NCBI GenBank assembly: GCA_964478695.1
Contig: CAYZIP010000006.1
Coordinates: forward strand, 1 to 49,537
From: an uncultured Candidatus Saccharibacteria bacterium
GTDB lineage: Bacteria; Patescibacteriota; Saccharimonadia; JAGOAT01; CAYZIP01
Length of the DNA stretch: 49,537 nt
Reading direction: 5' to 3'
Below are positions 4,033 through 49,537 of the stretch, one piece after another (the stretch's first letter is position 1; the number at the start of each line of letters is the position of its first letter). The notes beneath the pieces were generated by a model that saw only the letters and a list, made by a program, of their open reading frames with translations, made no database searches and was not told where the DNA came from. The translations under genes were made by a program, and so were the position numbers.

Positions 4033-5674
4033 TCACTTTTATTCTATTAGTCAAAATAGGTAATTTAGGCCAAAATCTAGGACTAGAGTTGATACTAAAA
4101 CCATCCATTTCTTTAACACTAGCTCTTAAAATACCTTCTACATCTTTGACTGATTTAAAACGTAATTTTCTAGAAAGTTCTTGTCTGGCAATAATGGCTC
4201 CAGACCACACTGTTGTATCTAAATCTAACATATATTGACCATCTCCAATATCTTTAACTGTGTTAAATTTAATAGATGCAAAGTCAAAGTCATATATCTT
4301 AGACCCAGCTTCTACTTTTTTATTAGCATTAGCCTTAATAATATCTTCTATTTCTGAGCTCTTGACGGCAGTTATGGAGTATTTTAAACTAAGTTTTAAA
4401 ATTCCTTCTTTATTCTCACTGCCTACAGGAGCACTAAGCTCTTCTTTTTCTATAGTTTGTACTAAAGTTTCTGGGATCAAGACACTATCACTTGGTAATT
4501 TTTTGCTTAAATCGGCAATAATCTTATCTCTATTATATTCTCTTAATTTATTTTTTAAATTATCAACATCACTAGAACTAACTATTTCTATAAATTTCTC
4601 TTGTCCGCCAGTAGTGGTTCCTACGCCACCGATTAGATCTGGCATTCCTTCTATAGTGAAGAATGTATCACTTAAATTAGAAGACTCTCCATTATTAATG
4701 GCTTGTACTTTGAGTTCTACTGAACTAGATTTACAAACAGACCCTCCTCCACTAAACACTCCGGCTGGAACCTCTACACTATTGTTGGCTATAAATTCTT
4801 TTCCTTTAGATAATACCTTGGCCCCACTGCTAATAGTATGCCCACTGGTATCATCACAATTTTTTATCATTACAGACCCACTAGCCTTGGTCCCAATATC
4901 TTTTTTACCACTAGCCTGATAATGCTCTTCCACATACTGAGATTTGTCTAAATAATTAGCACTTAAAACATTGTTTGCTAAATCACTCTTAATACTATTG
5001 GTGTCTAGGGTAATGTTAGTATTAATCTTAACTGCTGCAGCTTTAATATAAACAATAATATTAGCGCTAGGAACTATCACCATTAATGCTATTAGCCCTA
5101 AAAGCAGCACTAACACCATAGCGGCTTTATTAAGCCTAGATTTTAATAAATCAAAATTGGGGACACTGGGCTGGCTATACCCAACCACATTGTCGATTGG
5201 CTCAGACTGATGATGGGTTTTTTTTGAGTCAACCCCACTTGCTTGAACATATGCTAAATTAGCATCTTCTATATCACCATATTCTTCAATAGTATCTATG
5301 TCTTTAGCTTGCTCCTCTGGGATATTCTCACTGAGCCTAGAGCTGCTATTGTCATGAATCTTAATATCTTTTATATCAGCCTTAGTACTGTTTATTTTTT
5401 CTAAACCATCATCATGAATACTATTTAAATATGCTATATCATATCTGGACAATACTTTATGCAGACTAGTATCGCTAGTGATAATTACAATACTTTTACC
5501 CATTTTCTTGACACTACTATCTAAAAGCTTTAGATTAATACTACTTTTGGCCAAAACAGAGCGGCCAGGAAGCACTAACTTAATACTACTACTATGATGT
5601 TTCTTTATTAAATCTATAGCCTCAGTAATATCGGCATCATTTTCCAAATATAAAATAGCGCTTTTATTATTCAT
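4013..5674 (-). CDS. Single-pass membrane protein with a baseplate-J-like beta-rich extracellular region (conserved CPR-type hypothetical)
   Basis: Cytoplasmic N-domain (DADITEAID...KLVLPGRSVLAKSSINLKLL), acidic linker, one TM, then G.KASGSVMIKN and G..YN-like segments typical of this family. The stop overlaps the ruvX start. Confidence 0.65.
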   Translation of the reverse strand: MNNKSAILYLENDADITEAIDLIKKHHSSSIKLVLPGRSVLAKSSINLKLLDSSVKKMGKSIVIITSDTSLHKVLSRYDIAYLNSIHDDGLEKINSTKADIKDIKIHDNSSSRLSENIPEEQAKDIDTIEEYGDIEDANLAYVQASGVDSKKTHHQSEPIDNVVGYSQPSVPNFDLLKSRLNKAAMVLVLLLGLIALMVIVPSANIIVYIKAAAVKINTNITLDTNSIKSDLANNVLSANYLDKSQYVEEHYQASGKKDIGTKASGSVMIKNCDDTSGHTISSGAKVLSKGKEFIANNSVEVPAGVFSGGGSVCKSSSVELKVQAINNGESSNLSDTFFTIEGMPDLIGGVGTTTGGQEKFIEIVSSSDVDNLKNKLREYNRDKIIADLSKKLPSDSVLIPETLVQTIEKEELSAPVGSENKEGILKLSLKYSITAVKSSEIEDIIKANANKKVEAGSKIYDFDFASIKFNTVKDIGDGQYMLDLDTTVWSGAIIARQELSRKLRFKSVKDVEGILRASVKEMDGFSINSSPRFWPKLPILTNRIKVNAELKK

Positions 5675-5696: not shown

Positions 5697-7193
5697 TTAA
5701 ATACGCAATGATTTACTTAATTTATCTAGAACACTATCTTTATGACTATCTGTACCGATAAAATCATATCCAACCGAAACTAGCCCTAGGGCAGTTACGT
5801 CTTGAATATCCATATCATCAACAGCAACGATTTCTACTTGTTCTTGACCACTAAGTCTAGTCTCATCCGAGCTTAACCTATAAATATCATCTGGACACAA
5901 TAGCCCTATAGTAGGCCTACGGCCAAAACCAGCTTCCTTGTACCAATTATCATCTGCTAATAATACCTCTCTAATTTCTGGCAATAAACTTCCACCGCCA
6001 CACAACAATATCTTATTAGGGAGTTGGTCAATATTATCAAACTCACTTAATGCTATCTCTACTCCACCACGCCAAACCAAGGCATCGTCAAGCATAGTTC
6101 TTTTTAAAATATCCATTTTTTTGCCTTTTAATGATTTAGAGCAGTGTTCTAGTTTAGCAATTTCAGCTCTAGCAAAATCTAAATCCAAAATTTGAGTTAT
6201 TTTTTTAGTAAAAGACCTACCACCAATAGCAAACATTTTAGTCCCCATAATCCCACCATTATTAATAATAGCTATATCGGTGGTTCCTCCTCCGATATCA
6301 ATAACAATAGCACTAAATTCACTGTCTTCAGATATGCCTTTAGCTACAGCAAATGGTTCAGCAGTTAGGGTTAATAGCCTTAAATCCAAACGGTTAGCAA
6401 TAGTTTTAATGGCTCCAATGTGCACTAAAGGTGCAAAGGCATTATATATATCTAAAGTAACATCTTTACCCTGAAACCCAATGGGATTGGTGACCCTATA
6501 TCCATCTATGTAGACATCGATGACAGCGGCATTGATTAGTTCTATTTCAGGATCTTCTTGCCCAGTATTCCAAGACAAGGCCTCTTTGCTTTTTTGCATG
6601 GCCTTTTTTTCAATATCCCCACTAACATCAAATAGCTCATTCAGCTCAATAGGCACTTCTGGCTGCAAACGTCGATAAGCAGTAGAAGTTACCTTGCCTT
6701 GTATTAACTCGCCAGCCAACCCAATCACCACGTCTCTAATGGTGATATTAGACATTTGCTCAGCCATGCTTAAGGCATTATCACAATTATCTACAACGGA
6801 AGCTATATCCATAACCGCCCCTGACTGCATATCGGTTAGTTTTTGTTTTGAACGCCCCAATCCCACCACCTTAAGTTGTTCATTCTCAACAATACACTGT
6901 ACTACTTTTACATATTCAGTACCAATATCTAGCCCAGTAATAGTGTATGAATTATCTCCTTCTTTACCTCCTCTAAAATTAGTCAGTAGCGGAGAAGCTT
7001 TATCTTTTAGGGTTTTGGCAATGGTATTTAATAGGTTCTTATTAATATGTTTATTTAAGCTAATAGTTTTGGTCTTAGTGGCCACTTTGAAGCTACTAAT
7101 TTTTTTGCTAGTTTTAGATGCTAGCCCATCGACACTGTTTTCTGTATCATGTGGTGTAGAAGGGCGAGATAAATTTAATTTAACTTTTCTCAT
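5697..7193 (-). CDS. ftsA: FtsA-like actin-fold ATPase with ~80-aa basic N-terminal extension
   Basis: GLDIGTEYVK phosphate-1, VIDIGGGTTD phosphate-2, LCGGGS adenosine motif, AEPFAVA, C-terminal amphipathic SVLDKLSKSLRI. Confidence 0.85.
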   Translation of the reverse strand: MRKVKLNLSRPSTPHDTENSVDGLASKTSKKISSFKVATKTKTISLNKHINKNLLNTIAKTLKDKASPLLTNFRGGKEGDNSYTITGLDIGTEYVKVVQCIVENEQLKVVGLGRSKQKLTDMQSGAVMDIASVVDNCDNALSMAEQMSNITIRDVVIGLAGELIQGKVTSTAYRRLQPEVPIELNELFDVSGDIEKKAMQKSKEALSWNTGQEDPEIELINAAVIDVYIDGYRVTNPIGFQGKDVTLDIYNAFAPLVHIGAIKTIANRLDLRLLTLTAEPFAVAKGISEDSEFSAIVIDIGGGTTDIAIINNGGIMGTKMFAIGGRSFTKKITQILDLDFARAEIAKLEHCSKSLKGKKMDILKRTMLDDALVWRGGVEIALSEFDNIDQLPNKILLCGGGSLLPEIREVLLADDNWYKEAGFGRRPTIGLLCPDDIYRLSSDETRLSGQEQVEIVAVDDMDIQDVTALGLVSVGYDFIGTDSHKDSVLDKLSKSLRI

Positions 7194-7294: not shown

Positions 7295-9088
7295 TTAATT
7301 AATAATAGCCTTAATACGTCTTACGCCAGACGAACTAGACTCTTCTTTGGTAATTTTAAAATTGCCAATCAATCCAGTTCGAGATACATGTGGACCACCG
7401 CATATTTCTTTGGAGAAATAATTATCATCAGATCCAACCGTATAGACTTTAACAATATCAGCATATTTCTCACCAAATGCTCCTAGAGCTCCTTGGGAAA
7501 AAGCCTCTTCTTTAGGCATCTGCTGATAAGTTATAGGTAAATCTTGAGTAATTACATCATTTACTATTTTCTCTATCTTGGTAATCTCATCGGCCGAAAC
7601 TTTTTGAGGATGAGAAAAATCAAATCTCATTCTTTCAGTCGTTATATTAGATCCCCTCTGTATGACATGGCTGCCTAATACTTGACGCAAAGCTTGATAC
7701 ATTAAATGAGTAGCACTGTGATAACGAATAGACATTTTGGAATCATCCGCCAATCCTCCTTTAAATGCTCCCTTGGCAAATGATTGTGATCTTTGTCTTT
7801 GCTCCAACATTAAACCATCAAAAATTTGGTCTAAATCAGGCGCTAAATCAATATTCATGAGTCCTGCCTGTTCTTTGGTCAAATCCAAAGGAAATCCATA
7901 AGTATCAAAAAGCTTAAAGGCAATGCTACCAGTGATTACTTGTTGTTTATTGTGTAGCATTTTTTGAAATTCTTTTAGCCCCTTAGAAAGAGTTAGGCTA
8001 AATAACTGCTCTTCCGTAGCAATAATAGAGATAATATTTTTACTATCAGACAATTCTTCATAGTGATCTTTATATAAGTGAGTCAGGACTGGTACTAGCT
8101 CTAGGGCCAAAGGTTGTTTTATGTCTAATTCTTTTGCTCTGCTTATAGCCCTACGAAGTAATCTACGCATAATATAACCCCGACCTATATTACTAGGCTC
8201 TATACCGTCAGCAGCCATAAATACAGCACTACGGTAATGGTCAGCTATAATATGATAAGCTGCTTGACTATTAACATCATAAGCCTTGCTGCTAATGGCA
8301 GAAATGGCTTTTATGATTTCAAGAAAATTATTAGTTTGGTAAACACTATCAACTCCCTGCTTAACCATAGCAAGACGCTCTAATCCTCCTCCAAAATCTA
8401 CATTTTTACTGTCAAGTTCTTTGTACAAACCCTCATTTTTTTGATAAGACATAAAAACACTATTACATATTTCAATAAACTCAGGGCTATCACTATCAAA
8501 GTCAGGATTATCATCTTTACCTAAATAATAAAATATCTCTGAATCTGGTCCCGCTGGAGAATTATTAGCACCAGCTATTTCCCACCAATTATCGTTTCTG
8601 CCTAATTTTACCCACCTTTTTCCTTCTGTAAAATCTATATTAGATCTCTTAAAGATGCCTCTCCATATCTCGATAGATTCTTCATCTGGAGGAATGGTGC
8701 TATCTCCTTCATATACCGTAACATATAGCTTATTTTGATCTAATCCTAGATAGTTAACCCCTGTCAGCCACTCCCATATCCATTCCAAAGCTTCTTTTTT
8801 ATAATAATCACCCAAAGACCAGTGTCCCAACATTTCCAACATAGTTAAATGTGAGTTATCTCCCACCTCTTCTATGTCTGTTGTTCTAACACATTTTTGA
8901 GCATTGGCTAGTCTTGTCCCCATGGGATGTTTCTCTCCTAATAAATAGGGTACCAAGGGCTGCATGCCAGCAGTATTAAATAGTACCGTAGGGTCATTCT
9001 CTGGTATCAGACTAGCACTAGGGATAATGACACATCCCTTTGACTTAAAAAAATCCAAAAAGCTTTGACGAATTTGACTAGTATTCAT
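7295..9088 (-). CDS. alaS: Alanine--tRNA ligase (short form, no C-Ala domain)
   Basis: LFNTAGMQPL, DFGGGLERL, DHYRSAVF, GRGYIMRRLLRRA, editing HSATH...CGGPH; ends at SGVRRIKA. Confidence 0.96.
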   Translation of the reverse strand: MNTSQIRQSFLDFFKSKGCVIIPSASLIPENDPTVLFNTAGMQPLVPYLLGEKHPMGTRLANAQKCVRTTDIEEVGDNSHLTMLEMLGHWSLGDYYKKEALEWIWEWLTGVNYLGLDQNKLYVTVYEGDSTIPPDEESIEIWRGIFKRSNIDFTEGKRWVKLGRNDNWWEIAGANNSPAGPDSEIFYYLGKDDNPDFDSDSPEFIEICNSVFMSYQKNEGLYKELDSKNVDFGGGLERLAMVKQGVDSVYQTNNFLEIIKAISAISSKAYDVNSQAAYHIIADHYRSAVFMAADGIEPSNIGRGYIMRRLLRRAISRAKELDIKQPLALELVPVLTHLYKDHYEELSDSKNIISIIATEEQLFSLTLSKGLKEFQKMLHNKQQVITGSIAFKLFDTYGFPLDLTKEQAGLMNIDLAPDLDQIFDGLMLEQRQRSQSFAKGAFKGGLADDSKMSIRYHSATHLMYQALRQVLGSHVIQRGSNITTERMRFDFSHPQKVSADEITKIEKIVNDVITQDLPITYQQMPKEEAFSQGALGAFGEKYADIVKVYTVGSDDNYFSKEICGGPHVSRTGLIGNFKITKEESSSSGVRRIKAIIN

Positions 9089-9115
9089 ATTAGTATAATC
9101 ATATCATTAATAGAA

Positions 9116-10174
9116 CTATATTATGATAGCTGAAGCAGCCAGTATGTCTTGATAATAAAAGCAAGCAAATTGGCCTGGGGTAATGGCCCTGGTGGAGGTA
9201 CTTAAAATAACATTATCTCCATTGAGACTATACTCAATGGGCTTAGATTGATAGCGCAGCACCACATGGCTGGCATGATTAAAGAGATCTTGGTCAAATA
9301 TCATTAAATCTTTAATACTAAAATTATCTTTTTGCAATCTAGCTTTATGATTTTTATCTATAACATAGACTATATTATTATCAACATCTATACTATGGAC
9401 ATAATACGGCCCTTGCCCACCTCCTATACCCAAACCTGTTCTTTGGCCAATTGTATAATAGTATGCTCCATGATGTGAACCAACCACATTACCATCTTGA
9501 TCTATAATGTCTCCATTTTTTGGGGGCAAGTACTCTGCCAAAAATGTAGGTAAATTAATATTTCCTACAAAGCACAACCCTTGCGAATCTGCACGGTTAT
9601 AATTACTAAGCCCTACTTTTTTGGCTAATAAGCGCATATCTTGCTTGGATGTAATGGTGGCTAGAGGGAATATTACTTTACTTAAGACCTCTTGATTGAT
9701 ACGAGACAAAAAATAGCTTTGGTCTTTTTCTCTATTATAAGCCCGTGCTAATAAATATTTATTATTTAAATGTACTATCTTGGCCCAATGTCCAGTGGCA
9801 ATCATATCTGCTCCTTGGTCAAAACAATAATTAGAAAATAATTTAAATTTAATTTCTTGATTACAGATAATATCTGGGTTGGGAGTAAGCCCCAGAGCAT
9901 AATTCTCAATCATATAGCCCAAAACCTGCTTTTGATAATCTTGCTCCAGATCTAACACTTCTAATGGTATTCCTAAATCATAACTAACATTAGTAGCCGA
10001 ACGTAAGTCTTGTTCCCAAGGACAGTTATTCCCAGCCGAAGAAGTACTCCAGTTTTTCATAAATATAGCCTTAAGCTTAAATTGGCTTTCCTGAGATAAT
10101 AAATAAGCGCTATAAGCGCTATCCACTCCTCCACTTAAGCCAATGTATATTGTTGTATCTTGTTTTAAGTCCAT
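9116..10174 (-). CDS. mnmA: tRNA-specific 2-thiouridylase MnmA
   Basis: SGGVDS PP-loop, TPNPDIICN, ATGHW, KDQSYFL, DSQGLCF, TIGQR. Confidence 0.95.
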   Translation of the reverse strand: MDLKQDTTIYIGLSGGVDSAYSAYLLSQESQFKLKAIFMKNWSTSSAGNNCPWEQDLRSATNVSYDLGIPLEVLDLEQDYQKQVLGYMIENYALGLTPNPDIICNQEIKFKLFSNYCFDQGADMIATGHWAKIVHLNNKYLLARAYNREKDQSYFLSRINQEVLSKVIFPLATITSKQDMRLLAKKVGLSNYNRADSQGLCFVGNINLPTFLAEYLPPKNGDIIDQDGNVVGSHHGAYYYTIGQRTGLGIGGGQGPYYVHSIDVDNNIVYVIDKNHKARLQKDNFSIKDLMIFDQDLFNHASHVVLRYQSKPIEYSLNGDNVILSTSTRAITPGQFACFYYQDILAASAIII

Positions 10175-39983: not shown

Positions 39984-40193
39984 ATGAAAATATAATTATA
40001 TAATACGATTGAGAGTACAGGTATTGCCCGGATAATACATTTACTATTTTAGAGCAAAATCGACACTGATCATGTTTTTGTCAATCAAACCAACTGGCAT
40101 TGCGGCTGCTACCTTTTCAATGGACGTAATGGTTTTGAAGATAATGCAGGTGAATGTTCTCATATTCAGGCAATAAAGCTGAAAGGATTTTAG
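39984..40193 (+). pseudogene. SWIM-type zinc-finger protein remnant with two in-frame stops
   Basis: Hand translation MKI*LYNTIESTGIARIIHLLF*SKIDTDHVFVNQTNWHCGCYLFNGRNGFEDNAGECSHIQAIKLKGF* contains the CxC-x15-CxH SWIM signature. Confidence 0.6.
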
Positions 40194-40414
40194 TCAGTTT
40201 CGGCCAACTAGAGAGTTACTACCTCTGGTAGAATATAAAGAACAAATGAATGTGAACAGAAGAAAATATTAAAGTTGCCTCTACTAGATCTTGCCAACAG
40301 CAAAAAGTTTGAGAACGTAGTACTTTAAAGATCTGAGTGGTGCTTAAGTATATCAGAATCTAGAAGAACTAAAAATAGCTTGATAACAAAAAATATAAAA
40401 TCTACAATAGTCTT

Positions 40415-40927
40415 ATGAATTACAAACAACAGAGTAACCAAGGCTGTCTCGTCGTAGATTTAATGTACTTATTTGGCATTGAGCCGACTAGAGACAAAGA
40501 GCAGAACATTTTAAGCGACGGCTTGTTTCGATTACGTGAGAACTATACGCTAGGCTGCTTACTCGCTTTTCTTGACCGCTACACAGATAAGTCAGCAACC
40601 CTGTATGTAGATAACAAATACTACCTAGATATTTTGAAGCAATGGGTTAAGCATCCACGTATTGAGATGGTGTACAAGAAAAACGATGCAAAGTTGCTAG
40701 ATACACTCGATGCCCCTTTTATCGTCTACGTTGATAACAACATTACTGACGGCTGGACACACCTGCCTCACTATATGATGATTACAAGTGCTACAAATAA
40801 GTTTTACAACGTCTTCGACCCTTGGGATGGTAAGATAATTAAACTATCTAAGGATAAGGTACTGAGTGGAATTGAGCTGTTGCGTAGTCATGTTAAAGTT
40901 TGCCCGTTCATTATTCAGGCAAGTTAA
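40415..40927 (+). CDS. C39-like cysteine peptidase
   Basis: QQSNQGCL (Q...C), PHYMMIT (His), VFDPWDG (Asp). Confidence 0.7.
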   Translation: MNYKQQSNQGCLVVDLMYLFGIEPTRDKEQNILSDGLFRLRENYTLGCLLAFLDRYTDKSATLYVDNKYYLDILKQWVKHPRIEMVYKKNDAKLLDTLDAPFIVYVDNNITDGWTHLPHYMMITSATNKFYNVFDPWDGKIIKLSKDKVLSGIELLRSHVKVCPFIIQAS

Positions 40928-41231
40928 GCCCCCTTCATCTATAAGCCGTGCCATTTTAGAAAGTCAGTAAACGCACCCCTCTTTGTAGGCTATAAATAAC
41001 ATTAACATCAAAAAATGATTTGTTTTAACCATTTCACTCAACGATTGCTCACAGAGGTAGACACTAAAGAATCGCCCAATAATGCTCGTCAATGTTGAGC
41101 ATTCACAATATTATCAAGAATTGCCTGGAAGCAGAAAATATCCATACTAACTGAGTACTTCTTAATAGAGTCATGTAATTCATCTATAACTATTTCTACT
41201 ATTTCACCCCAAGTATTTAGTGGTATTAATC

Positions 41232-41471
41232 TTATAGTCTATCCTTATCACCAAAAATAGCTATGACAATTCTGGATGCAACTGAAACCTTCCTGCTAAA
41301 TGTGATATGATCGGAAAAAAGTTGTACAAAGTAACTGTGCAACTTGCTATTTCTGCTTTTAATCTCGCTTAATATCTGTTTTGGGGCTGGTCGCCATTTT
41401 TTAATCGTGTCAAAATAAACTTCAATAAGAGCAGTTATCTTAATAGATAGTATTAGGTTTGCTGTCGCCAT
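41232..41471 (-). pseudogene. C-terminal remnant resembling nucleotidyltransferase-associated helical domains
   Basis: The frame extends upstream without a start (IAIHGDMATANLILSI...KWRPAPKQILSEI) and is flanked by non-coding or broken frames. The family call is from recall only. Confidence 0.35.
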
Positions 41472-41874
41472 ATCTCCATGTATGGCTATAAGTGGAAATT
41501 TATTATGGTAGAAACAAAAGTCATGATAGAAATGAATAAAATATACTAGACACCATTAACTATGTCCTACTTTTATTTAAAGCACTTTCGTCGTGGACTT
41601 TCCCTGTGCTCTTTAGCACTACCATCACTTACTCAACACCCTTATGATGATGTCAATCAAAGGCTTGTCCCGGCAAATAGTTAATTGCTGGTCATTACCT
41701 CAAAATATTGATTTGAAAGGTGTTCAGGGCTAGCATAGTCACTACTACTATGAGCTTCTTCTTTTATAGGATATCCGACTAAGTATGTTTTATGGTACTA
41801 CGTTATTACTATCCATGCTATTCACATTATGCCTTACCAAAAAGTTCAGTGATTTTTTTGTATACTAATAAGTA

Positions 41875-42618
41875 ATGCCTAGAAGTATAAAAATTAACAT
41901 AAATAGCACAAATAATATTAAGGCTTTGGCGGACTTTCTTAAGCAACGTAGAAGCAAAACACGCCCAGAGTTGTCCTCTGTTAAAAAGTCCTTAATTCCG
42001 TCGATATATAATCAATTTATACTCCCAATGTTGAACTTATGGAGTAATCCTAAATCCAAAATAACAGAGTCTGACCTAATAGATTTTATGGGTGAAGTTT
42101 TTGCTCTATCAATATATTCTATATATAATACTGTATCTAATTGGGAAAAAGATCCAAAGTTGTCAAATAACCTGACACCCGATTTTTTAATTAATAACAG
42201 TGACTATGTTGAGATATATTCTCCAGAGATTGATTTTTGGAAGAATGTTAGCTCTACTGCTGGATTTCAGCCTGCGGCAGAATTGTTGACACAGAATACC
42301 GTCGTGAAGACCGTAGAGACTAAATCTAACAAGTATAGTGGATGCTCTATGGTTATCTTGGTGATAGTTTATAACTACCCATTTCCAAATGATTTGTCAA
42401 AAATATATGAACATATAAAGCACCGACCTGAACATAGAATTGTTGGTATGTATGGTAGTGCCATAGTCTACGATTCGTCTGGAGAAACTAAGACACGCAA
42501 GAAGCAAGTGCTTGTGCCTCTTAGTGATAAGTACCCGAAACAAGCTGAAAAAGTAGTAGCCAAAAAATACTTACTAAAGAAAAGGGACGCTACATACCCT
42601 ACACGAGCTACTGAATGA
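41875..42618 (+). CDS. Hypothetical protein with a PD-(D/E)xK-like nuclease motif
   Basis: TPDFLINNSDYVEIYSP followed by K..KY and a hydrophobic strand (KSNKYSGCSMVILVIV). Confidence 0.6.
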   Translation: MPRSIKININSTNNIKALADFLKQRRSKTRPELSSVKKSLIPSIYNQFILPMLNLWSNPKSKITESDLIDFMGEVFALSIYSIYNTVSNWEKDPKLSNNLTPDFLINNSDYVEIYSPEIDFWKNVSSTAGFQPAAELLTQNTVVKTVETKSNKYSGCSMVILVIVYNYPFPNDLSKIYEHIKHRPEHRIVGMYGSAIVYDSSGETKTRKKQVLVPLSDKYPKQAEKVVAKKYLLKKRDATYPTRATE

Positions 42619-42738
42619 GCTTTTAGAACACTCAGAAGAAACTATGGGTATTCTAAATGAAATTGAGGAAAGCATGTAGTCCTAGCAATGGCCTTGCTAA
42701 ACCCAGGCTTGTAAGTGGTGCTCTAGCGCCTACCTGAG

Positions 42739-43806
42739 CTATTGCTTTGGTCTTAGCAGATCCAATAGGCCAATATTTGCAAAGAATAAGTATTTTCCCA
42801 CTTTAACAGATTGCATTACGCCAATCCTTTCCAGGCTCTTAAGATGACTTGAACCAGTCTGATAAGTTACTTTTAGCATTTCTCCATATCTTGTCGGTGT
42901 GATGAAAGGTTGATTAAAGATTGCGTCCACTAAGTCACGAGAGTAGATTTTCGGTAATTCTTTCCTTATTTTTCGCTTAACTTCTTCATGCAAGTCTTTT
43001 ATTTTAAGAAGAATATCAGTACTTTCGATAGCCTGTTCTTTGAATGCATTCAACATATAGTTTATGTAGCCCTGCCAATCACCCTCATCGGTAACTTTTC
43101 TAATAGCCTCGTAATACTCGCTCTTGTGATTGTTAATGTACCCACTAATAAATAGAACAGGTAGGTCAAGCAAACCAAAATGAGTAAGACACAGAACCAT
43201 TAGTATTCTCCCAGTTCTACCATTACCGTCACCAAACGGGTGTATGGCCTCAAACTGATAGTGAGTAATTATTGTTATGAGAATAGGGTCTATGCCTATA
43301 GGGTTTTTATGTATGAATGTTTCAATGTCCGATATTAAGTCAGGTATTGAACTAGCGGCAGGTGGTGTGTAGATTACTTGCTTGGTCTTATCGTTGATAA
43401 GTGCGTTTTGGGTTTGCCTGAAGCCCTTTTCGTATGGCACAAGCATGTCATGCACTTCCTGGATTAATCTTGAGCCAATCAGTACTATATTTAGCATCTT
43501 CAACCCATGAGAAAGAGCGTGATTATACCTCAAAACTTCTTTATCTGCTGTCTGTTGCTCAGCTTCAGAGAATAACTGTGCCTGAAGTACATCTGCAAAT
43601 GTAGTGATTATATTTTCAATCTCAGAACTCGCAAGTGCTTCCCTTAAGACGGTTGGAGACAATAGAAGTTGGGGATTAGGCAAGCCATAACAGGCACCCT
43701 TAAGAATACCAATTTGCTTATGAACGTCAATCAGTTGCTTATTAAACTCATCAAAGTTGATTTCCTTTAGTACACTTAGTTTCTTTAGCTGATGTGGGTC
43801 ATTCAT
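42739..43806 (-). CDS. Fic-family protein (class II: N-terminal inhibitory helix, Fic core, C-terminal wHTH)
   Basis: HPFGDGNGRTGR canonical motif; ASSEIEN matches (S/T)xxxE(G/N); C-terminal HTH. SD GAAAGGAAG. Confidence 0.93.
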   Translation of the reverse strand: MNDPHQLKKLSVLKEINFDEFNKQLIDVHKQIGILKGACYGLPNPQLLLSPTVLREALASSEIENIITTFADVLQAQLFSEAEQQTADKEVLRYNHALSHGLKMLNIVLIGSRLIQEVHDMLVPYEKGFRQTQNALINDKTKQVIYTPPAASSIPDLISDIETFIHKNPIGIDPILITIITHYQFEAIHPFGDGNGRTGRILMVLCLTHFGLLDLPVLFISGYINNHKSEYYEAIRKVTDEGDWQGYINYMLNAFKEQAIESTDILLKIKDLHEEVKRKIRKELPKIYSRDLVDAIFNQPFITPTRYGEMLKVTYQTGSSHLKSLERIGVMQSVKVGKYLFFANIGLLDLLRPKQ

Positions 43807-43827
43807 AAACTTCCTTTCATTTAATAC

Positions 43828-43872
43828 ATATTACGTCATATATTAAAAAAAGTCAATTTCTTTAATATATGA
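43828..43872 (-). promoter_or_regulatory. fic promoter with a palindromic operator-like site
   Basis: TTGACT(43856-43851)-N17-TAATAT(43833-43828); 12-bp perfect inverted repeat tcatatattaaa (43836-43847) / tttaatatatga (43861-43872) straddling the -35 box. Confidence 0.6.
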
Positions 43873-43892
43873 TAGCCTATATATACAATCGC

Positions 43893-43982
43893 TTAATACG
43901 TGCTAAGTTCCATATTAATAAAAGAGAATTTGCTTAATATACTACAGGCAGTTAGTATTTTGTAAGTTTTGCAGTCTTTCAC
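43893..43982 (-). CDS. 29-codon small ORF (MKDCKTYKILTACSILSKFSFINMELSTY); leader peptide or truncated gene
   Basis: GTG start 7 nt after the strong SD AGAAAGGAG; sits just downstream of the 44028-44056 terminator. Confidence 0.4.
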   Translation of the reverse strand: MKDCKTYKILTACSILSKFSFINMELSTY

Positions 43983-44027
43983 TTAGACGCTCCTTTCTAG
44001 TTAGCTATAACCGCAGGAAAGTGCCTT

Positions 44028-44056
44028 AAATAAAAAGGGACACCGCCAACGGTGTC
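44028..44056 (-). terminator. Intrinsic terminator
   Basis: Minus strand GACACCG-UUGG-CGGUGUC followed by CCUUUUUAUUU. Confidence 0.75.
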
Positions 44057-44175
44057 TAAACTGTTTTTTCCACAATAAGCTTTCACCTACTGTTTCGGGC
44101 GATGCCCCTTTCTAAGGTGAACAAGCCGAGCGGAAAAACCGACGGTTTCTTATTGCGTATTTAACAGTTTAGACA
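44028..44175 (-). ncRNA. Candidate structured leader RNA / sRNA (unclassified)
   Basis: Perfect 13-bp closing stem (44053-44065 / 44163-44175), a 9-bp inner stem with a G-U pair only on the minus strand, two further hairpins, a promoter immediately upstream and a terminator immediately downstream. Confidence 0.62.
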
Positions 44176-44181
44176 AGACTT

Positions 44182-44190
44182 ATTATAGCA
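44182..44190 (-). promoter_or_regulatory. Extended -10 promoter TGcTATAAT
   Basis: Perfect consensus; predicted start about 44175, the first base of the 13-bp stem. Confidence 0.65.
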
Positions 44191-44207
44191 TCCCGTCATC
44201 TAGCGGA

Positions 44208-44804
44208 CTATTTCTCGAAGACTTTGTACTCACCCTCTTCTTGGGCGTAAATAGGTAGCGACTCATCGCCGTATTCTTCAAGTTCACGTTTTGCTTGCTC
44301 CCAGTCGATACTACCCCTCGGGTCATCTGCACCAAATGCTGAGTTATAGTGGGGTATAAACTTGATAGGCAATACACCGAAGCCATCACCACACTGCCTC
44401 CAGTCGCAAGTCCAATAGTGAGCAACAAGTAGGTTGGAGCTTGCTGAGTTAGTAGCAATAACCTTGTCTTTGAATAGTTCCGCTAAATCAAACTTACGCA
44501 TCCAGTACTGTACTAGGTGGTCATCTCCGCCGTGAAAGTAAATTATGTCAGCATCATTGCATTGCTCAGCGAAAGTATCGGGCATAGCTAAAGCAAATGA
44601 TGGACTTACAGTATCTGGCAAGTCTTCTGATATGGCGTCGGAGTAGCCTTGAAACTTCTCCTCCCAATACTCTCTACCTTGAGCAAAGTTGCACAGCAAG
44701 AACTTGGGATTATCGCTTAAACCTTTTACAAGCTCTTGATGGAACTCTCTTTTAAGCATTGGTGCGTTTTTAATACCCCCCGAGTTGAGAACGTACTTTG
44801 TCAT
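44208..44804 (-). CDS. Peptidase E (S51) / type 1 glutamine amidotransferase-like protein
   Basis: IIYFHGGD, TNSASS nucleophile elbow, FIPHY. Confidence 0.8.
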   Translation of the reverse strand: MTKYVLNSGGIKNAPMLKREFHQELVKGLSDNPKFLLCNFAQGREYWEEKFQGYSDAISEDLPDTVSPSFALAMPDTFAEQCNDADIIYFHGGDDHLVQYWMRKFDLAELFKDKVIATNSASSNLLVAHYWTCDWRQCGDGFGVLPIKFIPHYNSAFGADDPRGSIDWEQAKRELEEYGDESLPIYAQEEGEYKVFEK

Positions 44805-45289
44805 TTCAAGCCGTCCCTAAGATTTTCAAGAGAAAGGTCTACTCTGTAGTCTCGAATAAACACACCCTCTTCAATCTCTGCGTCGTTCATCCAGACTTTC
44901 TCAGGAGTTGCTTTGTACATATAGCGGACTGATTCACCGAGAAGACTGTCAGGCGATTGCTCAAAGTCAGAACCCTTTTTGATTCGTCTTACTTTTAAAA
45001 TTTCATCTGGGTCAGTAACTTGCTCTACGCTAGCTTGGATATAAACTCCCTCGCCATCGCCTTCTGGTACGGTTGAGTCGTAGATGACAATAAAGACCCT
45101 GCTATTGTTGGTGACGTTTTTAGAGTGCTGCCCCTCTTTGTCTGACACCCAGTAAACATTGAGGTCGCTATCGTATTCGTGTGCAACTGGGCTATTCCAA
45201 GGCAAACCGTCAGGAGTGACTGTAGCTAGGGTTGCATATCTGATTTGTTTTATAATTTCTACCGCACGTTTTTCGTGATGCTCGCTCAT
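44801..45289 (-). CDS. Pyridoxamine 5'-phosphate oxidase-like FMN-binding protein
   Basis: YATLATVTPDGLPWNSPV, YWVS...QHSKN, GVYIQA. ATGA overlap with the downstream gene. Confidence 0.88.
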   Translation of the reverse strand: MSEHHEKRAVEIIKQIRYATLATVTPDGLPWNSPVAHEYDSDLNVYWVSDKEGQHSKNVTNNSRVFIVIYDSTVPEGDGEGVYIQASVEQVTDPDEILKVRRIKKGSDFEQSPDSLLGESVRYMYKATPEKVWMNDAEIEEGVFIRDYRVDLSLENLRDGLK

Positions 45290-45345
45290 AGTTTCATTAT
45301 ATACCAGATAACTGTTGAACCTAGATTACAAGCTATAATGATGGT

Positions 45346-47205
45346 ATGGCTGGAGAGAGACGAAAACGCAAACCTATTGAAAGAGTTACCCTAACGCCCG
45401 AGCAAGTTAAGGAAGCTGAGGGCGTAATTGAAGATGCACTGAAAGATAATCCAAACGTTTACGACTTACCCGAGAGTAAATACAACCTAGATACACTTGC
45501 CAAGTTCTTTGTAGAGAGCAACAATGACAGCCAACTTATATTGCCTACTGAGAAGAGGCGTTATGTAGTGTATCTACGCAAGTCTACCGATAGCGAAGAC
45601 CGCCAAGTACGTTCTATAACCGACCAAAAAGCAGAGTGTTTATTGCTTGCAAGAACGCTTGGTATAACAGTACGAGAACAGGATATTCTTGAAGAAAGTG
45701 CCTCAGCTAAGAAGTCAGGTCGTAAAGAACGACCAATCTTCAACACGATGCTGGACGGTTTTAGAGCTAGTAAGTATCACGGTCTAATAGTTTGGTCTCC
45801 CGACCGCCTTTCACGCAATATGAAAGATGCTGGTGAGATTATTGAAATGATTGACCTAGAAAAGATACAAGACTTGCATTTCAAGACGTATCAGTTTGAG
45901 AACAACCCTAACGGCAAGATGCTACTTGGTATCCTGTTTGCCACCTCCAAGCAATATTCCGACAAGCTTTCGACTGACGTTAAACGTGGCACTGATGGCA
46001 ACGCCAATGAGGGTAAATACAATGGGGCTGTCAAAAAGGGCTACTTTGTTGATATGGAAAGTAAACACTTTTTGCCAGACGGACATAATTGGCAACTACT
46101 ACGCCAAGCAGTACTTATGAGGCTCAGGGACAAGAAGACCAATCAAGATGTTGCTGACTTCTTGAACGACAGCAACTTTAGCCAACGCAAAACTCAGTAC
46201 GACGAATATCAAAAGGTTAAAATGACCAAGCAAATGGTCAGCGATATGTTTAGCGACTCGTTCTACTGTGGCATTTACCAGTATGGTGGTAACGTTGCCA
46301 ATATTGTTGACCTGTATGGCTTTTTGCCTGTCTTTACAGCCGAGGAGTTCATACAGCTTAGCCGTAAGATGTCCGATAACTTCGACGAGGAGTTTAAGGG
46401 TCGGGGCTCTAACGCACAACGGCTCGATTTTGGAGTACTTAGAGAAAAAGTTATCTGTGATTATTGTGATAGACCGATGGGCTTCCAGCGAACTAAGATA
46501 CCAAGAGGAAAAAACCAAGGTCGCTATATGATTAGTTTCTACTGCCGTGATAATGGTCAGAATTGTCTACGCCACAATAACGAGGAAGCTATAAAACAAT
46601 ACGGTAAAAAGCTTAGCAAAAGTGTCAGACTCAAGGATATAACGCCACACATCGCTTGGACGATACAGAACTGTACTAAAGACAGCAAGAAAGCATACGA
46701 CTACTATATCGAACGTCTAAAAAGTGAAGTTGCTGTCAAACGTGAGACAGCTAAACGCAAGCTGGCTGATGCTAGAAAAGAAGTTGCTAAGCAAGAAGAG
46801 ATGCTAGCCCAGTATCAGAACTTTCAAGTACAGCACCCTGAAGATTATCAGAAGTACCACAAAAATAAGCTAGAGGAGCATCAACAGCTCCTTGATGTAC
46901 ATAGTGTAAGTGTCTCTAAACTAGAGAAAGAACTCGAAAAACTCAAGCAAGATTTACCAACCCGCAAAGAGTTTGCTGAACTCGTCCAATCGTATCTGTT
47001 AATACTACGTACAACCCGTGATTTGGTGGAAGAGGACGAAGTGTACAAAGAGATGGTGTTGAACCTACGTGTTAGGGACGACTCCGCCCCTGTTATAAAA
47101 TTAAATCCACCATACAATTTGATGGTGGATTTAAGTAAAATCGTTTCTGGTCGGGGTGAAAGGACTCGAACCTTCGACCTCATGCTCCCAAAGCACGCGC
47201 GCTAG
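45346..47205 (+). CDS. Large serine recombinase (resolvase + recombinase + Zn ribbon + coiled coil)
   Basis: YLRKSTDSEDRQ..S...Q catalytic Ser, ESASAK...RPIF, DRLSRN, CDYC...YC...C. The last 19 codons lie antisense on tRNA-Pro. Confidence 0.93.
   Translation: MAGERRKRKPIERVTLTPEQVKEAEGVIEDALKDNPNVYDLPESKYNLDTLAKFFVESNNDSQLILPTEKRRYVVYLRKSTDSEDRQVRSITDQKAECLLLARTLGITVREQDILEESASAKKSGRKERPIFNTMLDGFRASKYHGLIVWSPDRLSRNMKDAGEIIEMIDLEKIQDLHFKTYQFENNPNGKMLLGILFATSKQYSDKLSTDVKRGTDGNANEGKYNGAVKKGYFVDMESKHFLPDGHNWQLLRQAVLMRLRDKKTNQDVADFLNDSNFSQRKTQYDEYQKVKMTKQMVSDMFSDSFYCGIYQYGGNVANIVDLYGFLPVFTAEEFIQLSRKMSDNFDEEFKGRGSNAQRLDFGVLREKVICDYCDRPMGFQRTKIPRGKNQGRYMISFYCRDNGQNCLRHNNEEAIKQYGKKLSKSVRLKDITPHIAWTIQNCTKDSKKAYDYYIERLKSEVAVKRETAKRKLADARKEVAKQEEMLAQYQNFQVQHPEDYQKYHKNKLEEHQQLLDVHSVSVSKLEKELEKLKQDLPTRKEFAELVQSYLLILRTTRDLVEEDEVYKEMVLNLRVRDDSAPVIKLNPPYNLMVDLSKIVSGRGERTRTFDLMLPKHAR
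47101..47134 (-). terminator. Terminator hairpin for tRNA-Pro, embedded in the recombinase CDS
   Basis: 13-bp perfect inverted repeat ttaaatccaccat / atggtggatttaa with an 8-nt loop, 13 nt beyond the tRNA CCA, followed by UUUU on the minus strand. Confidence 0.65.
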
Positions 47206-47224
47206 CCAACTGCGCCACACCCCG
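47148..47224 (-). tRNA. tRNA-Pro (UGG)
   Basis: CGGGGTG TGGCGCAGTTGGCTAGCGC GCGTGCT TTGGGAG CATG...GGTTCGAGTCC...CACCCCGACCA. Confidence 0.95.
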
Positions 47225-48745: not shown

Positions 48746-49267
48746 TTAGACATCATGTATACCAAGCTTATTCTCAAGATAAATCACAGTTGGTAAATTT
48801 AGGAGGTGGAACTTTATCGAAAGTCCATCAAGCCGCAAACCAATTTCGGGATTTATCCCTCTATCTGCCGCATTCATTTCAAAAGGCTTTCCTTCATACT
48901 TTCCAAGAAAAGTTGGAATATCGTCATAAAGAACAAATTCGACATGTTCAAGCCCTTCCTGATACTCATTGCCTTTTTTGGGAGCAGGTAGTTCTATTGC
49001 GTCAATTCGCCAAGTAGCATGACGAACGGGTGTATTCAAGCGGAAAGTTGAAATTGGGCGATCATTGACCATAGTTTCGCCCAGCAACTTTGCAACTGAC
49101 GCTAGTTCTATTTTTTTGCTATGGTAATTTTCTAAAGAAATCGTCCTATAGCACATGTGGTCTATCTGAATAAAGTCAGACAAATCAAACCCTTCGGCAA
49201 TCACACGACCAAGAATATCGTCTAGAAAACTAGGATAATCTCCGATAATTTGTGCAAGCTCGCTCAT
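48746..49267 (-). CDS. YecM-like VOC (glyoxalase superfamily) protein; start moved to the ATG at 49267
   Basis: IDHMCYRT, VNDRPI, IELPAPK, GLEHVEFV, IKFH. The ATG follows TATACT-N6. Confidence 0.85.
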   Translation of the reverse strand: MSELAQIIGDYPSFLDDILGRVIAEGFDLSDFIQIDHMCYRTISLENYHSKKIELASVAKLLGETMVNDRPISTFRLNTPVRHATWRIDAIELPAPKKGNEYQEGLEHVEFVLYDDIPTFLGKYEGKPFEMNAADRGINPEIGLRLDGLSIKFHLLNLPTVIYLENKLGIHDV

Positions 49268-49462
49268 ATTATGAGTATAAATGTAGGTAAGCAAAACATC
49301 AAGCAGGACTCTAGCCCATTCTAAAGAGCTAAGCAGGGCAATATAAAAAGATATTTGTAAAAGAATATTTCAATCTCTATTTGTAATTTAACTATGGTAC
49401 ACGTTAGTCAAGAAAGTCAAAAAATCTGTAATGAATACGGGTCTTGCTTTTCAATATAATTT

Positions 49463-49517
49463 TTCGCTTTCGCCGTCTCACGGCTCATCAGCATGACTAT
49501 GGAGTTCATGGAGCGAA
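49463..49517 (-). ncRNA. Hammerhead ribozyme, type III topology
   Basis: Minus strand UUCGC-UC^-CAUGA-acuccauag-UCAUG-CUGAUGA-GCCG-ugaga-CGGC-GAAA-GCGAA: intact core and three Watson-Crick stems. Predicted cleavage between 49511 and 49510. Confidence 0.9.
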
Positions 49518-49537
49518 TATGACAAGCAGACATGGGG

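Follow-up and report, generated by a model that had tools for sequence, protein, structure and literature searches.

A type III hammerhead motif at the 3' end of interchangeable single-gene cassettes in Candidatus Saccharibacteria

Hammerhead motif in the window and its relatives

The stretch of DNA analysed here, 49,537 nucleotides of contig CAYZIP010000006.1 from an uncultured Candidatus Saccharibacteria bacterium (hereafter the window), carries at its right-hand edge a complete type III hammerhead motif on the minus strand (49517-49463), which was read directly from the sequence and has its predicted cut between 49511 and 49510. The feature (49463..49517) was assigned on its sequence, the Rfam family RF00008, a covariance model of its relatives (R1), covariation and chance expectation, and judged on these grounds it is very probably a genuine self-cleaving hammerhead RNA. 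Immediately 5' of stem III lies a conserved 13-nt leader, GUCUGCUUGUCAU (49519..49531, minus strand), which is also termed the 3' clamp; its reverse complement, the motif UUGACAAGCAGAC, occurs in the 5' untranslated region (UTR) of the cassettes described below. The minus-strand order is GUCUGCUUGUCAU A UUCGC U C / CAUGA ACUCCAUAG UCAUG CUGAUGA GCCG UGAGA CGGC GAAA GCGAA, where the slash marks the cut. Stem III is formed by UUCGC/GCGAA (49517-49513 with 49467-49463) and followed by U16.1 (49512) and C17 (49511), stem I by CAUGA/UCAUG with the 9-nt loop ACUCCAUAG (49510-49506 with 49496-49492, as a whole 49510-49492), and stem II by GCCG/CGGC with the loop UGAGA (49484-49481 with 49475-49472, as a whole 49484-49472), while the core CUGAUGA occupies 49491-49485 and GAAA occupies 49471-49468, all on the minus strand.

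All residues of the catalytic core (C3-U4-G5-A6-N7-G8-A9 and G12-A13-A14) were present in the window copy, N7 being the sole variable core position (U or C) among 32 relatives, and the junction pairs G10.1-C11.1, C1.1-G2.1 and A15.1-U16.1 of the three helices were intact. The cleavage triplet C-U-C (49513-49511) conforms to NUH, with C16.2 pairing with G15.2 (49467), loops I and II comprise 9 and 5 nt, respectively, and both ends exit via stem III. The core pattern CTGATGAG-N7-20-CGAAA has a single occurrence in the window, as compared with 0.01 expected on shuffling. Folding of the 91-nt segment alone gave the hammerhead stems, with a modest z-score of -1.8. In type III hammerheads a tertiary contact between loops I and II gives fast cleavage at physiological Mg; the window loops (ACUCCAUAG and UGAGA) are unlike those of most relatives (loop I UGYGYR; loop II AAAA or GAAA), and stem I is one pair shorter than in most of them.

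A 16-base leader pattern was scanned across public metagenomes and detected at least 120 loci, in 38 of which, among the matches listed, a full hammerhead follows the leader, and about two thirds of the leader matches were chance occurrences scoring at most 25 bits. The covariance model, built on 32 distinct hammerhead sequences, gave bimodal scores, with 40 members at 60-95 bits and leader-only chance matches at 25 bits or less, and the leader was near-invariant across the 40 hammerhead loci, in both cases among the matches listed. The window copy reached 74.3 bits (E about 3e-16) under this model, a search with which revealed a single hammerhead per locus and one in the entire 49.5-kb window. 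In the 32-sequence alignment, 97% of the cells in the hammerhead stems were paired as compared with 29-46% when the partners were slid, compensatory changes were observed in 11 of the 16 pairs, all six stem I pairs covary, and the core (N7 aside), U16.1-A15.1 and C17 were invariant. The triplet of the relatives (individual loci and contigs are denoted by L numbers) is CUC as a rule, GUC with C15.2 in L014, and probably UUA in L009. Common to all copies, directly before the cut, is (U)CUGCUUGUCAU(A/G)UUCGCUC, and homology among the relatives stops at the last base of stem III.

An earlier note on this DNA, made from the sequence alone, had described a complete type III hammerhead, and each of its elements was found at the minus-strand coordinates given above, in agreement with the family covariation. 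It had also regarded CUC/GAAAG as a compensatory pair, which is borne out by the family: C16.2-G15.2 is usual in the subfamily and L014 has the canonical GUC/GAAAC, so the pair covaries. The extension of stem III that it drew (GUCUGCUU with AAGCAAGAC at 49449-49441) is present in the window and, with one U.G, in L001, but it is absent from the other approximately 38 members and is not conserved. Its description of the genome as CPR-like (candidate phyla radiation) agrees with the relatives in the species-representative genome collection, all of which are Candidatus Saccharibacteria. The metagenomic loci yielded no shared housekeeping genes by which a taxon could be given to them.

The Rfam score counts against the assignment, as a relaxed scan of the last 238 nt with Hammerhead_3 (RF00008) gave 31.6 bits at 49462-49518 (E = 3.1e-5), below the gathering score of 48.5, and a scan of the whole window at gathering thresholds reported four tRNAs only and no hammerhead; the Rfam check that the earlier note had proposed is therefore silent at the default threshold and responds when it is relaxed. 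Every relative tested likewise scored 29-41 bits, below 48.5, such as the window copy at 49462-49518; L001 at 9751-9807; L002 at 911-968; and L082 at 941-995, and standard annotation will therefore not report these ribozymes. The low score reflects the seed model rather than a structural defect, and the Rfam hammerhead threshold overlooks a whole lineage, which constitutes an annotation gap.

Cassette architecture and cargo exchange

The region past the window edge was read from L001, a 224-kb metagenomic contig that encodes the yecM-like protein of the window identically and displays 97% identity to the window over 49537-46957 and 40145-32573. The L001 hammerhead (9751-9807) differs from that of the window by two substitutions, one making a G.U in stem I and the other located in loop II, both of which keep the fold, and it closes, on the right, the 2.0 kb that separate tRNA-Arg(tcg) from yecM. 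This stretch contains two open reading frames (ORFs) at 55-67% guanine-cytosine (GC) content in a host of about 35% GC. ORF2 (L001 9253-9669) encodes 138 amino acids without a family match, and its stop codon lies 71 nt upstream of the leader. Upstream of ORF2 are a sigma-70-like promoter, TTGACA-17-TATGAT (L001 9021-9049), which is the best promoter match of the region; the 5' clamp UUGACAAGCAGAC (L001 about 9115-9127); and the Rfam motif RAGATH-10 (RF03147; L001 9167-9245; 43.8 bits against a gathering score of 41.2), which stands just before ORF2 and overlaps the ribosome-binding site. A terminator-like hairpin (L001 9703-9718 plus UGUUUUUCC) was observed between the ORF2 stop codon and the leader, and the order of the L001 cassette is thus promoter, 5'-terminal hairpin, 5' clamp, RAGATH-10, 138-aa ORF2, terminator-like hairpin, leader and hammerhead. 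The other frame of the stretch, ORF1, encodes 170 amino acids at 65% GC with a weak PGDYG match. A strong GC-rich hairpin (L001 8677-8728) directly follows ORF1, and the 121 nt that include it (L001 8640-8760) have a folding energy of -48.5 kcal/mol and a z-score of -4.07, with no Rfam match.

The window holds no 5' partner of the leader. Across the family, almost all cassettes whose sequence extends far enough to the 5' side carry UUGACAAGCAGAC ahead of the cargo ORF, the distance between clamp and leader following the cargo length from 440 to 1110 nt. A near-consensus promoter and a 5' hairpin (GCUUUUG-UU-GA...UC-CGAAAGC, with a conserved base) precede the motif, which is therefore within the transcript. 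In this hairpin 91% of cells were paired as compared with 34-55% when slid, with compensatory changes in four pairs; these counts were taken from a hand-drawn structure, RNAalifold having given no pairs where MAFFT misaligned the variable loop. In many cassettes RAGATH-10 occupies the interval from the 5' clamp to the start codon, where ACACAAGAUGAG precedes it and complements its 5' arm. It was also detected, in related contigs outside the window, in cassettes with unrelated cargo, such as L058 (84.8 bits), L082 (69 bits) and L063 (43.4 bits), against the gathering score of 41.2, whereas L003 and L004 gave 28-33 bits, below the threshold. The motif is optional, as it is missing where the cargo is the 245-aa membrane protein or the 109-aa protein. 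An orphan Rfam motif thereby gains a context.

The end of a same-strand ORF lies 27-130 nt upstream of the leader in most loci, and no more than 400 nt upstream wherever an ORF was found. The cargo ORFs upstream of the hammerhead fall into at least 14 unrelated protein clusters, the commonest of which are the 245-aa membrane protein (17 loci), the ORF2 family (11 loci) and the 109-aa protein (5 loci). The cargo GC content is near 50-57% regardless of that of the host and is hence conspicuous in low-GC hosts. Searches of Pfam, PHROGs and PADLOC gave no match for most cargos and none for ORF2. Among the cargo ORFs of L082 and L063/L107, one matches phrog_301 'secreted protein' (E 1.4e-16) and another is weakly Tad4-like (anti-Thoeris; E 2e-4, below the Pfam cut-off). 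Hints at the sequence level suggest that some cargos may be phage-type accessory genes. Searches for the ORF2 family in IMG/VR and the JGI metagenome collection gave no match, and the leader pattern had nine matches in IMG/VR, none with a hammerhead after it; a phage origin of the cassette is therefore not established.

Relatives of ORF2 are rare, with only 25 clusters among 5.8 billion clustered proteins, none of them named, and in the one-genome-per-species collection they occur on three contigs, all from Candidatus Saccharibacteria metagenome-assembled genomes. The AlphaFold model of ORF2 is confident (pLDDT 90) and mostly beta, a comparison with PDB and BFVD gave no match below E = 0.04, and going by the model the protein may represent a new fold. 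A hammerhead was observed downstream of the ORF in nine of the 11 distinct ORF2-family loci, and the settings of the family are unrelated, such as between trpF and transaldolase; abutting uvrA; and near priA. In L009, a divergent hammerhead with enlarged loops and an apparent UUA triplet lies about 390 nt downstream of the ORF2-family gene.

Cargo genes are exchanged inside a constant RNA frame. At one chromosomal site with identical flanks, three different cargos were observed in different samples (L136, L058 and L128). L136 (about 1380-2335) and L058 (about 6140-6840) diverge from about 10 nt upstream of the -35 box to the leader, and their hammerheads are almost identical despite the different cargo, while L128 aligns with this site from the leader onward only. 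A cassette-type route of gene exchange is thereby indicated in Saccharibacteria, organisms with very small genomes. Some cassettes lie directly downstream of a tRNA gene (L001, L004, L016, L035 and L107), and in L035 (616-632/792-808) and L016 (4478-4502/4628-4652) a duplicate of the 3' end of the adjacent tRNA lies 150-176 nt farther on, immediately before the cassette.

Long-range pairing, proposed mechanism and alternatives

In the helix between clamp and leader, 88% of cells were paired as compared with 27-50% when slid, a figure that is inflated by the location of the 5' clamp arms by pattern. Compensatory changes were observed in L002 (A-U to G-C) and L014 (G-C to U-A), U.G wobbles occur, L001 included, the extensions of the helix vary between cassettes but remain complementary, and mismatches in the core are of the G.U type in eight cases and of the A.C type in one.

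Predictions of minimum free energy (MFE) folds and partition functions for long RNAs are unreliable, and some of the partition-function probabilities exceeded 1, which are numerical artefacts. Within these limits, the leader pairs with the distal clamp in 14 of 23 unconstrained full-length cassette MFE folds, and stem III forms in 10 of these 14 as against none of the nine in which the leader pairs locally. When the 3' region was folded alone, stem III was obtained in one of 23 cassettes, and when the clamp was replaced in silico by its complement, the probability of stem III dropped more than 2-fold in 10 of 23 and never rose as much. On these models it is possible, if still tentative, that capture of the leader by the 5' clamp licenses folding of the ribozyme. 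In the cassette type of the window (the ORF2 family), the leader and the stem III strand are predicted to pair with a local arm that begins at the stop codon, and the equilibrium prediction is a hammerhead in the OFF state (probability 0.03 or less). When the footprint of a ribosome terminating at the stop codon was masked, the probability of stem III in L001 rose from 0.01 to 0.75, an effect seen in only five of 12 cassettes (L001 and four of the 11 others).

Taken together, the element is probably the self-cleaving 3'-end and insulator module of a small, horizontally exchanged expression cassette whose body lies just past the window edge. Observed directly are the motif and its covariation, its constant placement behind an ORF on the same strand, a conserved 5' motif complementary to the leader, and cargo swapping within the same RNA frame. 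Transcripts reaching the ribozyme would be cut after C17, between 49511 and 49510, which would free a cassette mRNA ending in a 2',3'-cyclic phosphate a few nt past a leader able to pair with its own 5' UTR, whereas the ribozyme body would remain on the 5'-OH downstream fragment and the cassette would therefore no longer be coupled to the host gene yecM. By capturing the leader, the 5' clamp would free the stem III strand and let the ribozyme fold, and in the window-type cassette the local arm at the stop codon would hold the ribozyme off until opened, possibly by a terminating ribosome. The cut would stabilise the upstream mRNA and expose the downstream RNA to degradation, the latter fate being proposed by likeness to glmS products. 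This account fits the suggestion of the earlier note that the 3' end of an upstream transcript is processed, as in L001 a same-strand 138-aa gene with its own promoter precedes the ribozyme; the small-RNA idea of the same note found no support.

A more far-reaching proposal, and a rather doubtful one, is that of a two-part RNA device around interchangeable cargo, in which a 5' module (hairpin and clamp UUGACAAGCAGAC, often with RAGATH-10) and the 3' module (leader and hammerhead) are linked by a long-range helix gating ribozyme folding. The ribozyme, and with it the 3' end, would form only once the leader has been captured by the 5' UTR of the mRNA, which in window-type cassettes would have to wait until a terminating ribosome opens the competing local hairpin. 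If true, the device would represent a natural allosterically gated hammerhead linking translation to 3' processing, and would explain why bacterial hammerheads and RAGATH motifs travel with shifting accessory genes.

Several observations weigh against these interpretations. Only the leader and the ribozyme lie inside the window, the cassette body being known from a different, 97%-identical contig. L004 (7909-8375) and L016 (about 4900-5327) possess the 5' hairpin, the clamp and a RAGATH-10-like leader but no detectable hammerhead, although for L016 only about 450 nt downstream were available to the search. The 10-bp clamp core is almost invariant while stem I of the hammerhead drifts; base pairing by itself would not demand such constancy, and a protein or a DNA-level process could be recognising the core. 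The sub-threshold Rfam score, the inflated pairing figure, the unreliability and artefacts of the long-RNA predictions, the predicted OFF state and the ribosome effect in a minority of cassettes belong on the same side.

The invariant core is also one ground for regarding the clamp and leader mainly as DNA, that is, as inverted repeats around the cargo serving as recombinase sites for exchange, excision or inversion, with the hammerhead as a passenger or secondary feature. A structural helix would be free to drift like stem I, whereas the 10-bp core is near-invariant across unrelated cargos; different cargos occupy one genomic site with divergence ending exactly at the leader (L136, L058 and L128); cassettes often adjoin tRNA genes with duplicated tRNA 3' ends; and the cargo GC differs from that of the low-GC hosts. 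The repeats are not terminal, however: beyond the left one come the conserved promoter and 5' hairpin, and beyond the right one the hammerhead. The swapped unit has its left junction ahead of the promoter and not at the clamp. The mismatches favour G.U (8 vs 1), as RNA pairing predicts, the extensions beyond the core vary by cassette yet stay complementary, with bulges, and no recombinase gene is consistently found near the cassettes. Every ORF found keeps one orientation relative to promoter and ribozyme and no inversion was seen, on which ground an inverton was rejected. A primarily DNA-level role is accordingly unlikely. The hammerhead might instead serve the downstream gene by trimming or regulating the 5' end of the yecM mRNA, as the two share a strand, with yecM 195 nt downstream, and the ribozyme body would remain on the downstream fragment; against this, the upstream cassette is constant while the downstream neighbours vary and are often convergent (transaldolase, uvrA and a 96-aa ORF), homology ends with stem III, yecM has its own promoter-like site, and the tRNA-end direct repeat intervenes between ribozyme and gene, so that this role is very improbable.

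A comparably slight chance attaches to an element of the retro or circular-RNA type, akin to retrozymes or viroids, whose hammerheads would excise unit-length RNA; the earlier note had also considered a retro-type mobile element. Viroid-like RNAs and retrozymes typically carry type III hammerheads (PMC5680766, PMC7761336), 5'-3' pairing could join RNA ends, and many relatives of the cargo protein lie on contigs of about 1 kb. Such short contigs are normal for the collection, however, and the units are protein-coding and occur in long chromosomal contigs of 224-420 kb, with one hammerhead per locus and one in the whole 49.5-kb window, and no reverse transcriptase was seen among the loci with listed genes. 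The upstream cleavage product would moreover be without the ribozyme, and the 5' triphosphate of primary transcripts is unsuited to RtcB-type ligation. The least probable alternative is a chance or decayed motif without activity, to which the score below the Rfam threshold, the local fold z-score of only -1.8 and the stem I one pair short of most relatives would lend themselves; the core, G10.1-C11.1, A15.1-U16.1 and C17 are nevertheless intact, both L001 substitutions preserve the fold, the core pattern is expected 0.01 times per window, and the strong covariation of the family, judged on its sequences, rules out chance or decay for practical purposes.

Relation to known systems and neighbouring features

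Thousands of bacterial hammerheads are known, and a lone one is unremarkable; the interest of the proposed self-cleaving 3'-end module is that it offers a testable explanation of a long-standing puzzle. Bacterial hammerheads have been described flanking genes in prophage-like regions, near integrase genes, and were proposed to process transcripts (Perreault et al. 2011; PMC3088659), and a 2019 review states that the reason for the hammerhead-gene association 'has not yet been determined' and that bacterial roles are 'largely elusive' (PMC6765202). In the present subfamily of at least 40 copies, the ribozyme closes a single-gene cassette, the cargo is interchangeable, and the leader near the cut complements the 5' UTR of the same mRNA, and this clamp-leader complementarity makes the hammerhead-gene association directly testable. 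A literature search of incomplete coverage found no paper linking hammerheads to Saccharibacteria or Patescibacteria and no description of a hammerhead leader complementary to a 5' UTR. The ribozyme belongs to a known class, and the cassette architecture with its 5'-3' clamp is, as far as can be told, new.

The subfamily shares with type III hammerheads (RF00008; the bacterial ones of PMC3088659) the CUGAUGA/GAAA core, the three stems (I, II capped, III open) and the NUH triplet, but it scores 29-41 bits, its stem III (UUCGC/GCGAA) is nearly fixed and comes with a CUC triplet, and its 13-nt leader complements the 5' UTR of the same mRNA. Like the hammerheads of PMC3088659, it adjoins accessory genes, a context in which transcript processing has been proposed; several copies flank genes there, whereas one gene carries one copy here, at its 3' end, and the identified hosts are Saccharibacteria. 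RAGATH motifs take their name from a ribozyme-associated gene context (PMC11061315), in keeping with which RAGATH-10 lies just upstream of the cargo ORF in L001 and with unrelated cargos; what is added here is that it is optional, lies outside the window between 5' clamp and start codon, and overlaps the ribosome-binding site. A self-cleaving RNA in a bacterial 3' UTR was used in the twister reporters of Felletti et al. 2017, as summarised in PMC6765202. According to that summary, the ribozyme of these reporters, as in the cassettes, sits downstream of the coding region, sets the mRNA 3' end and can alter expression, but the reporters are engineered whereas the present module is natural, conserved and coupled to a 5'-UTR partner. 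In the case of glmS, cellular RNases degrade the 5'-OH fragment after cleavage (PMC6765202), and the shared 5'-OH product makes it a model for the fate proposed for the downstream RNA; glmS differs in its 5' UTR location, its metabolite cofactor and the destruction of the coding part, which here would be the upstream product, with no ligand implied.

Integron cassettes resemble the present ones in having a variable ORF followed by a conserved structured 3' boundary element and in the exchange of cargo at a fixed genomic site. They differ in that no arrays were seen here, each locus has one cassette with its own promoter, and the 3' element is a ribozyme with RNA-level covariation; an integron cassette was rejected, as there is no integrase gene beside the cassettes, which are single units with their own promoters. 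Retrozymes and viroid-like circular RNAs (PMC5680766, PMC7761336) likewise carry a type III hammerhead, but their hammerheads are paired or tandem, their unit-length circles are non-coding and their hosts are eukaryotes. Nothing of the kind was seen here, and such an element was rejected on the coding cargo and the lack of a second hammerhead at any locus or in the window.

Downstream of the ribozyme, at a distance of 60 nt, the window contains a second copy of the 3' end of tRNA-Arg(tcg) with its downstream sequence (GTGTACCATAGTTAAATTAC..GAAATAT), an attR-like direct repeat (49365..49402, minus strand). The repeat comprises the last 8 nt of the tRNA plus about 30 nt, and in L001 its first copy (7838-7868) is the end of tRNA-Arg and its second copy lies at 9866-9896, the two bracketing the 2.0 kb with both GC-rich ORFs and the hammerhead but no integrase. 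It may be an att-like footprint of an integrated element now without its integrase. The yecM-like host gene (48746..49267, minus strand; Pfam YecM, E 4.7e-30) lies outside the cassette and would be the downstream neighbour that the ribozyme separates from cassette transcripts. The earlier note had placed the ribozyme about 195 nt from this gene, which it described as appearing to have a separate promoter; the ATG at 49267 lies 195 nt downstream of the ribozyme, and a promoter-like site of the gene was observed in L001 at 9966-9994.

Farther into the window, a 6.8-kb segment (40145-46957) that is missing from L001 adjoins tRNA-Pro (47148-47224, minus strand). It carries the gene for a large serine recombinase of 619 aa (45346-47205, plus strand), the 3' end of which overlaps tRNA-Pro. 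The segment has a GC content of 41-44% as compared with about 35% elsewhere, and it looks like a strain-specific integrated element.

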